From: a virus
Taxonomy: Duplodnaviria > Heunggongvirae > Uroviricota > Caudoviricetes
Virus record (IMG/VR): IMGVR_UViG_2724679140_000006
DNA: 5,392 nucleotides
Reading direction: 5' to 3' (one strand)
Part shown: in pieces, positions 1 through 5,392 of the stretch
Layout: each line of letters starts with the position of its first letter
Position numbering within the stretch: position 1 is the stretch's first letter
Made by a program: the position numbers and the translations under genes
Notes under the pieces: model-generated
Told to the model about the DNA's origin: nothing
The model's input: the letters and a program-made list of their open reading frames with translations, nothing else
The model's database searches: none

Positions 1-70
1 TTATCAGTTACAGGAAAACATGACCAGAGTATTCCGAAAAAGAGAATAATCAATAAAATATTGAAAATAC

Positions 71-193
71 ATGGTGCCGGGTGCCTCCCGGTGAATTCTG
101 CAATGACCAGACAGAATCCGCAACTTGCCTATACGATAACGCGACCAAACATCTGTCATTATGCCCCTCCGCTCATGAGGATTCACCATGCAG
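71..193. repeat. Copy A of a structured direct repeat: 25-nt 5' box, divergent hairpin-containing core, 15-nt 3' box
   Basis: The 5' box ATGGTGCCGGGTGCCTCCCGGTGAA (71-95) is identical to 985-1009, and the 3' box GGATTCACCATGCAG (179-193) is identical to 1073-1087. The 5' box contains a GGTGCC direct repeat and a CCGGG/CCCGG hairpin, and the CATGGTG/CACCATG ends are inverted complements. The core is different in sequence from copy B but forms its own hairpin (ATTCTG 95-100 with CAGAAT 112-117). Weaker shared boxes continue to about 257. Strand of any RNA product is unknown. Confidence 0.8.
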
Positions 194-389
194 TACTCTT
201 TTAACAAACTCCCTGCAAGCAGGACAACATTCTGCGTTCTGAGTTGTGTGGAATTTAACACTTCACACCTGTGTGCATTTTCTGCAGGCTGATACCAGCT
301 CCACAATACATCGCAGGCAACAGAAGCCAAATACCCCACCACAGAAAAAACATGCAATTATGATTATTGTTTACTGCAAAGATGTAGAA

Positions 390-818
390 TCACGGTTTAA
401 AATCCAGCACTCCATTGTGAAATACTTTATATACTTCCGGAGACGGCGGCGCTGGTATATCAGCATTCTTTATCGCATTCATCGCTTCACGACATAAATC
501 GAGGTCTCCACTTTCTCTTTTAACCTCCAGTAGAAGGCCATTCGGGGCCATATGCATTCTCAGTGTACACTCTTTTCCTGAATACTTACTCGCATCCCCG
601 AACTGTTTTTCGATGGCGCTCTTGATTTGATGGGCATACAGACGGATATCCTCACTAACATCAGAAGTACGTTCAGATGAACTCACATACTGTGTCTCTG
701 TTGATTTATCGGAGTAATATGATGTACGGTCATAATAATTTGTCGATACAGCATCAGTGCATCCGATAATAATCCCACTAATAATCAACGTAAGAATTGA
801 TGCGCTACGAAAACCCAT
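390..818 (-). CDS. Prophage lipoprotein with a TolA C-terminal (domain III)-like domain, 142 aa
   Basis: ATG at 818 with a GAGG RBS about 5 nt upstream; TGA stop at 390. N-terminus MGFRSASILTLIISGIIIGC has a basic n-region, a hydrophobic h-region and an IIGC lipobox. A Ser/Thr/Tyr-rich linker follows. The C-terminal ~85 aa (YAHQIKSAIEKQFGDASKYSGKECTLRMHMAPNGLLLEVKRESGDLDLCREAMNAIKNADIPAPPSPEVYKVFHNGVLDFKP) matches E. coli TolA domain III as I recall it (motifs QIKSAIE, CTLR, APxGxLL, GDxxLC, IPxPPS, VYxVF, terminal LDFKP). Similarity is from memory, not computed. Confidence 0.75.
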   Translation of the reverse strand: MGFRSASILTLIISGIIIGCTDAVSTNYYDRTSYYSDKSTETQYVSSSERTSDVSEDIRLYAHQIKSAIEKQFGDASKYSGKECTLRMHMAPNGLLLEVKRESGDLDLCREAMNAIKNADIPAPPSPEVYKVFHNGVLDFKP

Positions 819-847
819 TTTTCCTCACATATGTCATATAGTAAAGG

Positions 848-877
848 ATTATATATACCGTTGTTTTGGACGCTCAA
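848..877 (-). promoter_or_regulatory. Putative sigma70 promoter for the lipoprotein gene (TTGAGC, 18-nt spacer, TATAAT)
   Basis: Minus-strand -35 TTGAGC (plus 872-877) and -10 TATAAT (plus 848-853) with an 18-nt spacer. Predicted start near 841, giving a ~20-nt leader to the ATG at 818. Sequence inspection only. Confidence 0.45.
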
Positions 878-935
878 ACAGCGAATCAGATCAAATAAAA
901 CGCACATTTGTTAACATTTACACAAAGTCTGCGTG

Positions 936-956
936 GGATATTCTGAAAGAATATCC
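936..956. promoter_or_regulatory. Perfect 8-bp inverted repeat GGATATTC-TGAAA-GAATATCC, possible operator
   Basis: Exact dyad symmetry seen directly, about 60 bp upstream of the -35 of the lipoprotein promoter. No U-run on either strand, so it is not an intrinsic terminator. Confidence 0.3.
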
Positions 957-984
957 ATAATGTGGAGAGAATCTATTGAAGTGC

Positions 985-1087
985 ATGGTGCCGGGTGCCT
1001 CCCGGTGAACAAAACGTTCGTGATACCTGTCGGCGACAGAAAAGGTTAATGGTATCACCCCACCGCACAGGGGGATTCACCATGCAG
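985..1087. repeat. Copy B of the structured direct repeat (same 5' and 3' boxes as copy A, different core)
   Basis: 5' box at 985-1009 and 3' box at 1073-1087 are identical to copy A. The core forms an 8-bp stem (GTGATACC 1020-1027 with GGTATCAC 1051-1058) enclosing a small hairpin around 1027-1039. Upstream ATTGAA and downstream boxes CAAACTCaCTGC (1100-1111) and GAGTTTGTGGcATTTA (1144-1159) are also shared with copy A. Confidence 0.8.
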
Positions 1088-1406
1088 GAGTTTTCTTAGC
1101 AAACTCACTGCGCGCCCGGCAACTCCCAACCACATAAAATGCGGAGTTTGTGGCATTTATGCATATAACTCGCAGGAATTATCTTAAAAAACTGATGTCG
1201 ATCCGGATTAAAAAGAAGCAGGTCATCATCAGATGACTGGAAAAAAGGAAAACAAAAAATACTCATCATACAGTTTTGATTGCAGGGATGAGCCTGCTAT
1301 GCACAATATGCAGAATATAAGCAAGATAAAAATATGCAGGCATATTATTTCGGATTTTGTTATTAACACAACCTTTTTAATAATCATTTGGCATACAATA
1401 AACCAG

Positions 1407-1435
1407 CCCAAAAAGAACCGCCTAAACAGGCGGTT
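1407..1435 (-). terminator. Intrinsic terminator, minus strand
   Basis: On the minus strand the hairpin AACCGCC-TGTTTA-GGCGGTT is followed by CTTTTTGGG. On the plus strand the same hairpin has no T-run after it. Confidence 0.55.
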
Positions 1436-1786
1436 GGTCAATACAAAGGATGCTTCGTCTTTATTATAGTAATCTGAGGCGTCGGGTGTCTTGTATCAGA
1501 CAACATATTGTCCCGCTAAACAGCGAATTACAAACCACCCTGCAATGATCTCTCATCTCATTTTATATGAGTTGACGACATCAGGATAACGCATCATCAG
1601 CCCCTGCCAGGAAATACAAAATCTCCACCGATAATGCACCATTCTGCTGCCGTAAAAAATCAGCACTGAGGCTACACCCGGCCTCAAATCATAGCCAGAG
1701 AACAGAATGCTTTTTCAAAACAACCTGCTCCCACGTAATAAAAAAATGCGCCAGTGCCGCAATACAATAAGGCTTGTTTCAAATGC

Positions 1787-2893: not shown

Positions 2894-3057
2894 AACGATA
2901 ACTCCGTACATTTGGACATTATCGCCACCGTCAGGTGCTAATCATCGTGGTGGCGAACTGTGCGGGGTTAGCACTACCGAGTACGGAAACCGGCGAGCCT
3001 TTCGGCTCCCCCACACAGCCCGCCATAAATCGCGAATGTGACTGTGCAAACGATATG

Positions 3058-3079
3058 AAAAAAAGACGCGGGCGCGTCT
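3058..3079 (-). terminator. Intrinsic terminator about 60 nt downstream of the pR'-like promoter (tR'-like)
   Basis: Minus-strand hairpin AGACGC-GCCC-GCGTCT followed by seven T residues. Confidence 0.6.
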
Positions 3080-3141
3080 CATATCGCTCCGTAAACATCC
3101 GGGGTGCTAATCCCGACGCCAGATTTTGCTGGCGCGTGAGG

Positions 3142-3171
3142 AATATAGCCCCGGATAACAGATTGAGTCAA
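3142..3171 (-). promoter_or_regulatory. pR'-like late promoter overlapping the Q stop codon (TTGACT, 18-nt spacer, TATATT)
   Basis: Minus-strand -35 TTGACT (plus 3166-3171, overlapping the TGA stop of the upstream ORF) and -10 TATATT (plus 3142-3147). Promoter immediately 3' of Q followed by a terminator is the classic lambdoid pR'/tR' layout. Confidence 0.5.
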
Positions 3172-5059: not shown

Positions 5060-5215
5060 TTACTCCTCAGGTTCGTAAACTGTGAAGACAGCGACCTCCG
5101 TCTGGCCGGTTCGGATTCGTACCTCGCAGAGGTCTTTCCTCGTTACCAGTGCCGTCACTATGACGGTTAAACAGATGACGATCAGGGCGATTAACATCGC
5201 CTTTTGCTGCTTCAT
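5060..5215 (-). CDS. hok: Hok/Gef family type I toxin, 51 aa, HokD/RelF-like
   Basis: MKQQKAMLIALIVICLTVIVTALVTRKDLCEVRIRTGQTEVAVFTVYEPEE is near-identical to HokD/RelF as recalled. ATG at 5215 with AGGAG about 9 nt upstream; TAA stop at 5060. The ORF track shows an in-frame 19-codon upstream extension from an ATG at 5272, which may be a mok-like frame. Confidence 0.85.
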   Translation of the reverse strand: MKQQKAMLIALIVICLTVIVTALVTRKDLCEVRIRTGQTEVAVFTVYEPEE

Positions 5216-5280
5216 AGCCTGCTTCTCCTTGCCTTTCGGCACGTAAGAGGCTAACCTACATTTGTGAGACATAGATTGGG

Positions 5281-5338
5281 CCTCAGATTAATGTTAAGCG
5301 TCTTGCAGGACGCGTAATGTTAACTGGGGCTTTTCTCT
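5281..5338 (+). ncRNA. Possible Sok-like antisense RNA 3' end, or a leader structure of hok mRNA
   Basis: Plus-strand compound hairpin: outer CCTCAG/CTGGGG, imperfect arms containing TAATGTTAA twice (5288-5296 and 5315-5323), inner GCGTC-TTGCAG-GACGC (5298-5313), followed by CTTTTCTCT. It is antisense to the region upstream of hok. No convincing promoter found; boundaries and strand are uncertain. Confidence 0.25.
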
Positions 5339-5392
5339 ATCTGCCTTTTGGTGATCATGCCTGAGGCAGATAGCCTCAAGCACCCATTATGA

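Follow-up and report, generated by a model that had tools for sequence, protein, structure and literature searches.

Lambdoid phages carry cargo genes between the antiterminator gene Q and the lysis genes, among them stx1 and stx2 as well as the envelope-acting porins lc (PA-2) and nmpC (DLP12). In the Escherichia coli envelope, the C-terminal domain III of TolA (TolA III) is a hub at which the N-terminus of TolB, the g3p-N1 domain of Ff phages and colicin N (ColN) bind to strand β3 by β-strand addition (PMC4339652; PMC7391070). The exchanges D418P or K420P in TolA abolish ColN and g3p binding together with TolB function, resulting in the full tol phenotype (PMC4339652), while colicin A (ColA) adds its strand to the domain's opposite side, at TolA 375-380, aided by K368, K379 and K396 (PMC3365938). 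When TolA III is artificially exported to the periplasm, E. coli cells become leaky for periplasmic proteins (Wan & Baneyx 1998, applied in PMC6195910). Here, we are discussing a phage gene that brings these two themes together. It encodes a predicted lipoprotein with a stand-alone TolA III and is located at positions 390-818 (minus strand) of a 5,392-nucleotide stretch of DNA from a virus of the Caudoviricetes (IMG/VR record IMGVR_UViG_2724679140_000006), which is referred to as the window throughout.

The open reading frame (ORF) runs on the minus strand from an ATG start at position 818 to a stop codon at 390-392, comprises 142 codons and is preceded by the Shine-Dalgarno core GAGG (823-826, minus strand), read from the sequence four bases before the ATG. 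Its product is composed of three parts, the first of which is a lipoprotein signal peptide (residues 1-20; 759-818, minus strand). The N-terminus, MGFRSASILTLIISGIIIGC, contains a single positive charge (R4) and a 14-residue hydrophobic core, and the layout MGFR / SASILTLIISGIII / I-I-G-C20 fits the features of lipoproteins, i.e., a charged n-region, a hydrophobic core and a lipobox of the form [LVI][ASTVI][GAS]C, here IIGC. An alignment of 37 homologues sharing 25-66% identity with the window protein has only six invariant columns, and Cys20, the predicted lipidated first mature residue, occupies one of them. In E. coli, threonine at position +2, as opposed to aspartate, predicts Lol-dependent sorting to the outer membrane; from this +2 rule, we infer lipidation and outer-membrane sorting for the window protein, which has Thr21 at that position. 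The second part is a tether (residues 21-54; 657-758, minus strand) with 8 Ser, 6 Thr, 5 Tyr and 4 Asp among its 34 residues. It is predicted to be disordered, both from its composition and from the predicted local distance difference test (pLDDT) of an AlphaFold model, which is below 50 over residues 19-50. The length of the tether is constant at 34 residues in both E. coli subfamilies of the protein (see below), while its sequence is variable.

The third part (residues 55-142; 393-656, minus strand) is a TolA III, as delineated by alignment, model and structure search. The Pfam TolA profile (PF06519) matches residues 49-140 on profile positions 4-96 of 96 with E = 2.9e-23 (82.3 bits versus a cut-off of 25), and a phmmer search against the PDB gives a gapless alignment between residues 55-142 and positions 334-421 of E. 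coli TolA (E about 1e-27). Identity to E. coli TolA III amounts to 52/88 residues (59%), including both cysteines and the terminal LDFKP. An initial AlphaFold model based on nine close sequences had a mean pLDDT of 52.7 and superposed poorly; it was superseded by a model based on an alignment of 28 diverse homologues, in which the pLDDT is 91-97 over the domain. This model has the α/β fold of the solved TolA III structures, in which a three-stranded sheet packs on helices, and comprises a helix at residues 54-72, a short helix at 76-79, strands at 84-90 and 96-104, helices at 106-118 and 127-133, and a final strand at 135-140. According to Foldseek, it superposes on 2X9A_B, i.e., TolA III in complex with g3p of phage IF1, with a template modelling (TM) score of 0.96 normalised to the target and a root-mean-square deviation of 0.7 Å, and the best nine PDB structure matches are TolA III without exception.

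The ligand-binding surface is retained to a large extent. Strand β3, L138-D139-F140-K141, corresponds to TolA 417-420 and is identical in both E. coli subfamilies, with LDF(K/R) as the family consensus; Cys84 and Cys109 correspond to TolA Cys363 and Cys388, are invariant in the 37 homologues and are predicted to form a disulfide. Among the ColA-contact residues, L375, L376, K379 and K396 are retained and D377E, I378V and L392M are conservative exchanges. The net charge of the domain is -1.3 versus +1.7 for TolA III, with changes at positions 353, 368, 380, 397 and 399. A preliminary description of the window, made from its letters alone, had read the product as a lipoprotein signal (IIGC, Thr at +2), a low-complexity Ser/Thr/Tyr tether and a C-terminal match to TolA III ending in LDFKP, and had proposed profile and structure searches for a TolA_C fold; each of the three parts is borne out by the evidence given above, and both searches are positive.

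By its domain, the protein belongs to the TolA_C family; it is not TolA, three of whose defining features it lacks. The N-terminal inner-membrane anchor (TolA domain I) is absent, with a 20-residue, presumably cleaved lipoprotein signal in its place, and matches to the TolA models extend over no more than their last ~100 positions; the Ala/Lys/Glu-rich helical domain II is replaced by the 34-residue Ser/Thr/Tyr-rich disordered linker; and the score for the equivalog model NF007065 (108 bits) remains below the cut-off of 213. Another model, TIGR02794, is passed (75.5 versus a cut-off of 59.45) on its C-terminal 100 positions only; hence, the name "tolA" given by RefSeq to an identical gene in NZ_CP054665.1 (WP_061892351.1) is an over-annotation. 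In NZ_AP021891.1, an intact copy (L004 5001-5429) is even marked as a pseudogene "missing N-terminus". The genuine tolQRA-tolB-pal-cpoB locus sits, intact, elsewhere in the same genome as the window sequence, and compared with the chromosomal tolA of the same strain, the domain-coding part has a nucleotide identity of 58%, a dS above 2.5, i.e., saturated synonymous sites, and a dN of 0.43. A sensitive blastn search with the gene matches 898 of 5,426 complete E. coli genomes and not all of them, which implies that the query does not detect chromosomal tolA. By distance, the nearest sequence outside the family is E. coli TolA III; a neighbour-joining tree of the domain poorly resolves between capture from tolA and capture from an older lineage of short lipoproteins. 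A Salmonella sequence (P0199) considered as a further short homologue was rejected, as it is the end of a real tolA at a contig edge, adjoining tolB-pal.

These 898 genomes correspond to about one in six complete E. coli genomes (~16%). Two subfamilies, about 67% identical, are found in the species: subfamily 1, to which the window gene belongs, starts with MGFRSAS…IIGC, and subfamily 2 starts with MYCR…T(T/A)GC. The gene is under purifying selection, with a dN/dS of 0.27-0.37 between the subfamilies, which differ at 23% of their nucleotides, and seven synonymous versus one non-synonymous change in the domain among close variants. It is present in 61 IMG/VR viral contigs, where each of the 58 copies contained fully within its contig is intact and encodes exactly 142 residues; some of these copies are recombinants between the two subfamilies. 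Frequently, the gene resides in defective Rac-like prophages.

The chromosomes of two E. coli strains, IGC_EcoliInv_1.1 and IGC_RcoliRes_1.1, match the window at 100% identity; in the former, it lies inside a complete Rac-like prophage at the Rac locus, with ydaS/T/U/V upstream and DUF1737, DUF826, holin, lysozyme, Rz, terminase and head genes downstream. Both strains originate from a mouse-gut experiment in which an invading K-12 strain acquired the prophages KingRac and Nef from a resident one (PMC6731689), and the window is very probably part of KingRac. In this source prophage as well as in phage mEp460_ev081, the gene is located between the Q-like antiterminator region and the holin/lysis genes. 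In subfamily 2, the order is Q, a methyltransferase gene, tRNA-Ile, tRNA-Arg, the TolA-like gene, copies of the small RNA (sRNA) STnc100—followed in some loci by AsxR, the "anti-stx2" sRNA—and an esterase gene of the nanS-p type; this is the position at which stx2AB sits in the gene order of Stx2 phages. An EDL933 prophage with the same frame of DUF1133, tRNA and holin genes carries TerB and DUF3927 genes in the slot instead. Among related lambdoid prophages, the gene is present in some and missing from others, at a fixed position. Its GC content is 42.0% (35.7% at third codon positions, GC3), compared with 45-50% and 47-55%, respectively, in the ORF6N, DUF1133, YbcO and DUF1367 genes of the window, and with 49% for the domain III part of tolA. 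This low, moron-like GC content together with presence and absence is a cargo signature. Thus, what the preliminary description had claimed about the locus also stands, namely a cargo gene in the Q-to-lysis slot (in subfamily 2, even the stx2 slot), its moron-like character and its divergence from host tolA.

Most matching E. coli genomes align only from position 389 upwards (98.8% identity), and the whole of window positions 1-1500 is matched by only 10 genomes, while the others break exactly at the stop codon. The sequence 3' of the stop is unrelated to that of the common form (27/100 bases match); a mosaic recombination junction therefore lies exactly at the 3' end of the gene (389/390). 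Copies of STnc100, a known sRNA family of prophages (bioRxiv 10.64898/2026.05.13.724894), border the gene in every locus examined (the window and L002, L003, L004, L008, L026, L035, L036, L044, L049, L055 and L063), in subfamily 1 immediately upstream of it and in subfamily 2 immediately downstream, with as many as five copies in tandem in the latter. They may serve as recombination borders for the exchange of cargo or as a source of read-through transcription. In the window, an upstream copy, which forms the upstream border of the cargo unit, is found at 929-1115 (minus strand; Rfam RF02076, 86.4 bits versus a gathering score of 47) and a downstream copy at 21-220 (minus strand; RF02076, 105.3 bits). 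The ORF at 4-357 (minus strand; 117 residues, TTG start) overlaps the downstream copy, has no Pfam match and was treated as spurious.

In most relatives, the place of this downstream STnc100 copy is taken by a second lipoprotein-TolA_C gene, termed par2, which follows 175 bp downstream of the first gene in 35 of 38 subfamily-1 viral contigs and is lacking in the window prophage. Its product comprises 124-131 residues, shares 28% identity with the window protein and has VAGC as its lipobox; the linker contains two additional cysteines (examples are L004 4455-4829, minus strand; L002 6580-6975, plus strand; and L008 6601-6975). A gene of the same type is found on pO157 (L076 5815-6246).

As to transcription, a consensus scan reveals a σ70-like promoter candidate, TTGAGC-18-TATAAT, at 848-877 (minus strand), which matches 10 of 12 positions. 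The upstream sequence including this candidate is identical in all subfamily-1 loci, so its conservation is uninformative; in none of three independent upstream regions did a scan yield more sites than expected from shuffled sequences. In the two-gene form, a terminator-like hairpin follows par2, which would result in a unit of promoter, genes and terminator. Read-through from STnc100 and the Q-dependent late transcript are further possible sources of transcription. The locus EDL933_2012, of "TolA" type and induced 32-fold by ciprofloxacin (PMC11125564), was considered as evidence for expression and discarded, as it is a genuine tail-fibre gene.

The window protein belongs to a wider class of exported stand-alone TolA_C proteins. 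A HMMER search of 1.84 billion representative sequences yielded 325 matches at E ≤ 1e-3; among the best 146 non-self representatives, 83 have at most 170 residues, 47 of which possess a lipoprotein signal and several others an ordinary Sec signal. Named sources are Escherichia, Shigella, Citrobacter, Klebsiella, Enterobacter, Raoultella, Serratia and Scandinavium. The class is not confined to mobile elements, since Enterobacter and Citrobacter have chromosomal genes for short TolA_C lipoproteins (L067-L070) in conserved non-phage neighbourhoods; the neighbours there comprise peroxidase, RidA, TetR-type and arsenic-resistance genes. On plasmids, tblastn matches are found in 1,307 of 72,556 PLSDB records. 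Large MPF_F conjugative plasmids of Klebsiella, including those of the pKpQIL type, carry exported TolA_C genes, e.g., L075 5890-6249 adjoining psiA and L079 5824-6258 (pKpQIL-type) adjoining a gene for a thioredoxin-fold protein; one of these two proteins has a Sec signal and the other a lipobox. On pO157 of E. coli O157:H7, a par2-type gene is located between psiB-psiA-hok and toxB. In mobilizable ColRNAI plasmids of K. pneumoniae (10-12 kb), the stop codon of a TolA_C lipoprotein gene overlaps (ATGA) the start of a gene for a TonB_C domain (PF03544) with a Sec signal (L074 684-1417, NZ_CP081823.1), the latter gene occurring in 480 PLSDB records (372 at ≥95% identity). Judged from this overlap, the pair appears to be translationally coupled and would export the tip domains of both envelope energy transducers.

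In the PHROGs database, the phage family is number 5772, "unknown function". The sequence family is thus already present in databases and the gene is not new; what appears not to have been described is its architecture, how prevalent it is and the role it is likely to play. We found no publication on any phage, plasmid or chromosomal member of the exported TolA_C class, and the KingRac papers mention neither the TolA-like gene nor colicins. As a separate observation, the preliminary description had overlooked that the gene is a member of a large, already-annotated class and that most of its relatives have a second, divergent copy downstream.

Concerning function, we tentatively favour the reading that the lipoprotein acts as a decoy for ligands that bind TolA by β-strand addition and, in this way, confers tolerance to Tol-dependent colicins and filamentous phages; we give it nearly, if not quite, an even chance. 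The exported lipoprotein would probably have its anchor in the outer membrane's inner leaflet, and a TolA III copy, folded and disulfide-bonded, would dangle just underneath on a flexible tether of ~34 residues. Tether and anchor would, hence, place the domain at the site where g3p and the translocation domains of colicins first emerge. In the absence of a transmembrane helix and of domain II, the protein would not be coupled to TolQ-TolR or the proton motive force, i.e., it would bind but could not pull. Capture of colicins and g3p is expected from the retained β3 edge strand and most of the β2 face used by ColA. The decoy could thereby hold the translocation domains of Tol-dependent colicins and g3p at the point of entry, away from energised TolA, which would make the lysogen tolerant to group A colicins and TolA-dependent phages. 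Periplasmic TolA III reportedly makes cells colicin-tolerant, which Levengood-Freyermuth is said to have observed in 1993. The dissociation constant of the TolA-TolB complex is about 40 µM versus about 1 µM for ColN (PMC4339652); given this much weaker binding of TolB, a moderate level of decoy could protect the cell without fully disabling Tol-Pal.

The purifying selection and the cargo signature described above also speak for a decoy. A further argument comes from the occurrence of the same architecture on elements without a lysis step (1,307 plasmid records, pKpQIL, ColRNAI pairs). The pili of MPF_F conjugative plasmids attract filamentous phages, and the C-terminal domain of TonB is the hub for group B colicins and TonB-dependent phages. 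A decoy is preferred over an aid to lysis because the architecture is common on plasmids and chromosomes that lack a lysis step and because it is paired with an exported TonB domain. Extending this idea, Enterobacterales phages and plasmids might widely export the C-terminal domains of energy transducers—TolA usually as an outer-membrane lipoprotein, sometimes together with TonB—as decoys against bacteriocins and pilus-dependent filamentous phages, constituting an unrecognised, common form of immunity based on import hijack, carried by about one in six E. coli genomes and by epidemic plasmids like pKpQIL and pO157; we consider this generalisation possible, with the doubts outweighing the support.

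Several observations weigh against a protective decoy. Two ColA-contact residues are changed (K368 to His or Tyr and P380 to Arg), and in the phage proteins, Gly or Lys takes the place of the TolA tyrosine implicated in TolB binding (Y352 in papers; Y353 in the alignment numbering); the range of ligands is therefore uncertain. If the gene is controlled by Q as part of the late region, it may be made mainly during lytic growth, when protection of the cell matters little. The promoter candidate is a consensus match, and 8 such sites occur in 2.2 kb versus 5.3 ± 2.3 in shuffled sequences. In some lineages, frameshifted forms of 157 residues and truncated forms exist, implying that the gene decays there. 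PADLOC returned no match to any defence model at E ≤ 0.1. Finally, PMC6731689 notes no such phenotype in the KingRac lysogen, though none was assayed there.

Among the alternatives, sabotage of Tol-Pal for the benefit of the phage is unlikely but the most serious contender. Here, a late-transcribed, tethered TolA III would titrate the N-terminus of TolB, so that TolB is no longer pulled away from Pal, Pal stays off the wall and the outer membrane loosens, leading to faster lysis and/or more vesicles. The gene is positioned directly upstream of the lysis cassette (holin, endolysin, spanin) and downstream of the Q-like antiterminator, and subfamily 2 occupies the position of stx2, itself late-transcribed cargo. 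Moreover, β3 is the site for TolB, blockage of which produces the full tol phenotype (PMC4339652), periplasmic TolA III causes leakage (PMC6195910), and tol mutants hypervesiculate (PMC7391070; PMC11032300). This reading fits less well with the frequent occurrence of the architecture on plasmids and on the chromosomes of Enterobacter and Citrobacter, where there is no lysis programme, and the pairing with an exported TonB_C on plasmids is hard to explain by tethering of the outer membrane. Many related lambdoid prophages lyse their hosts without the gene, and the low affinity of TolA for TolB (about 40 µM; PMC4339652) would make high expression necessary.

Somewhat less probable still is that the likeness to a decoy is misleading and that the domain binds another ligand, such as a protein of the phage or of the outer membrane or an enzyme acting on the cell wall, or supports an envelope function. 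Identity to TolA III is only 59%, with surface residues and charge altered (-1.3 versus +1.7); the stable chromosomal copies in conserved, non-mobile Enterobacter and Citrobacter neighbourhoods suggest a role compatible with housekeeping, and the two tandem copies of most E. coli prophages, being 28% identical, suggest different specificities. Yet the best-conserved surface element is the edge strand, through which all known interactions of TolA III take place, and no partner gene is consistently linked in the loci examined.

That the gene is a functionless passenger, i.e., decaying cargo hitch-hiking in a recombination-prone lambdoid region, is improbable. Such a fate would agree with the frameshifted 157-residue and truncated forms, with the frequent location in defective Rac-like prophages and with flanking STnc100 repeats that could move the gene passively. 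It is contradicted by a dN/dS well below 1, by an ORF length that is invariant in 58/58 complete copies across two subfamilies differing at 23% of nucleotides, by the invariance of the lipobox cysteine and both domain cysteines in homologues down to 25% identity, and by an architecture that emerged or was kept on phages, plasmids and chromosomes alike. A recent fragment of host tolA, rearranged or misassembled, as the RefSeq name and the pseudogene flag "missing N-terminus" in some genomes would suggest, is refuted by the 58% nucleotide identity and dS above 2.5 to tolA of the same strain, the blastn count of 898 rather than all 5,426 genomes, the signal peptide and tether of the gene's own, the intact tolQRA-tolB-pal locus elsewhere in the genome, and its presence in a sequenced phage genome and 61 IMG/VR contigs.

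The remaining recognisable genes of the window are, like the TolA-like gene, all encoded on the minus strand, so that the phage reads from high to low coordinates. Upstream, these are a hok/sok type I toxin-antitoxin system (5385-5060, with a Hok/Gef-family ORF at 5060-5272 and the sok RNA at 5210-5385, 121 bits), a DUF1367 gene (4620-4009), a YbcO/DUF1364 nuclease gene (4009-3719) and a DUF1133 gene (3722-3168) with a weak match to Q antiterminators. Directly downstream of this Q-like gene follows an immunity module in the style of P1/P7 (2336-3148), composed of c4/isrK antisense RNAs and an antirepressor-type gene (3148-2336); its parts are the c4 target a1b1 (3096-3148), isrK (3059-3135), the C4 antisense RNA (2946-3030) and the ORF6N gene (2336-2911). 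This arrangement resembles that of isrK-anrP in Gifsy-1. Four phage tRNA genes (2096-1787) with the anticodons CAT, TCT (Arg), TGT (Thr) and TCC (Gly) and a strong terminator-like hairpin (1435-1416) complete the inventory. The tRNA with the CAT anticodon is assigned as tRNA-Met by ARAGORN and as tRNA-Ile (lysidine type) by RefSeq.

If the decoy reading is true, a gene that RefSeq lists as "tolA" would prove to be a lysogenic-conversion factor carried by ~16% of the complete E. coli genomes and could explain part of the broad tolerance of natural isolates to group A colicins, which was reportedly described by Feldgarden and Riley in 1998. It would represent a new exclusion principle for phages and plasmids, in which a co-receptor is copied instead of a surface receptor being blocked, and would provide natural, diverged TolA III variants for separating the interactions of Tol-Pal. 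The plasmid relatives (pKpQIL, pO157, ColRNAI with TonB_C) would tie it to the ecology of epidemic clones and to TonB-dependent uptake. If, instead, the lysis reading is true, the gene would encode a new accessory factor for lysis or vesiculation acting via Tol-Pal. Since KingRac lysogens and the isogenic K-12 parent exist (PMC6731689), the question is directly testable.

Compared with E. coli TolA III (PDB 1TOL, 2X9A, 3QDP/3QDR, 1S62), the phage domain has the same fold, disulfide cysteines and β3 LDFKP at 59% identity; unlike TolA, the phage protein stands alone behind a lipoprotein signal, lacks domains I and II, is encoded outside the tol-pal operon and has an altered surface charge and altered contacts. 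Artificial periplasmic TolA III is likewise an isolated domain sent to the periplasm and is dominant-negative on outer-membrane integrity (PMC6195910), and the phage protein would act in a similar manner, but the artificial protein is a soluble, overexpressed laboratory construct of the host domain, whereas the phage protein is natural, diverged and predicted to be lipid-anchored. The proteins encoded on pKpQIL (WP_001567367.1), pO157 (WP_001453090.1) and ColRNAI plasmids (WP_001237044.1) and on Enterobacter and Citrobacter chromosomes (P0236, P0252) share the three-part architecture, both cysteines and the LDF(K/R) end; these plasmid and chromosomal relatives reside on other replicons and are 25-51% identical to the phage protein (38-39% for the plasmid matches listed). 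With the stx, lc and nmpC cargo, the gene has in common the slot, the tRNAs upstream and, in subfamily 2, STnc100/AsxR and nanS-p downstream, and with the lc and nmpC porins a product expected to act on the envelope, while the protein and its proposed action are different.

Two described kinds of exclusion come closest to the proposed action. Filamentous-phage g3p expressed by the host occupies TolA, so that the cells tolerate colicins and are immune to superinfection. Cor (φ80/N15/mEp167) and Llp (T5) are small outer-membrane lipoproteins of phages which block other phages or colicins at one import route. Host-expressed g3p relies on the same interaction between TolA III and g3p-N1 (interface in PMC7391070); there, however, the ligand is made, while here it is the receptor domain. 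Cor and Llp bind and plug the receptor FhuA (compare bioRxiv 10.64898/2026.03.26.714494), whereas the phage TolA III protein would imitate a periplasmic co-receptor.

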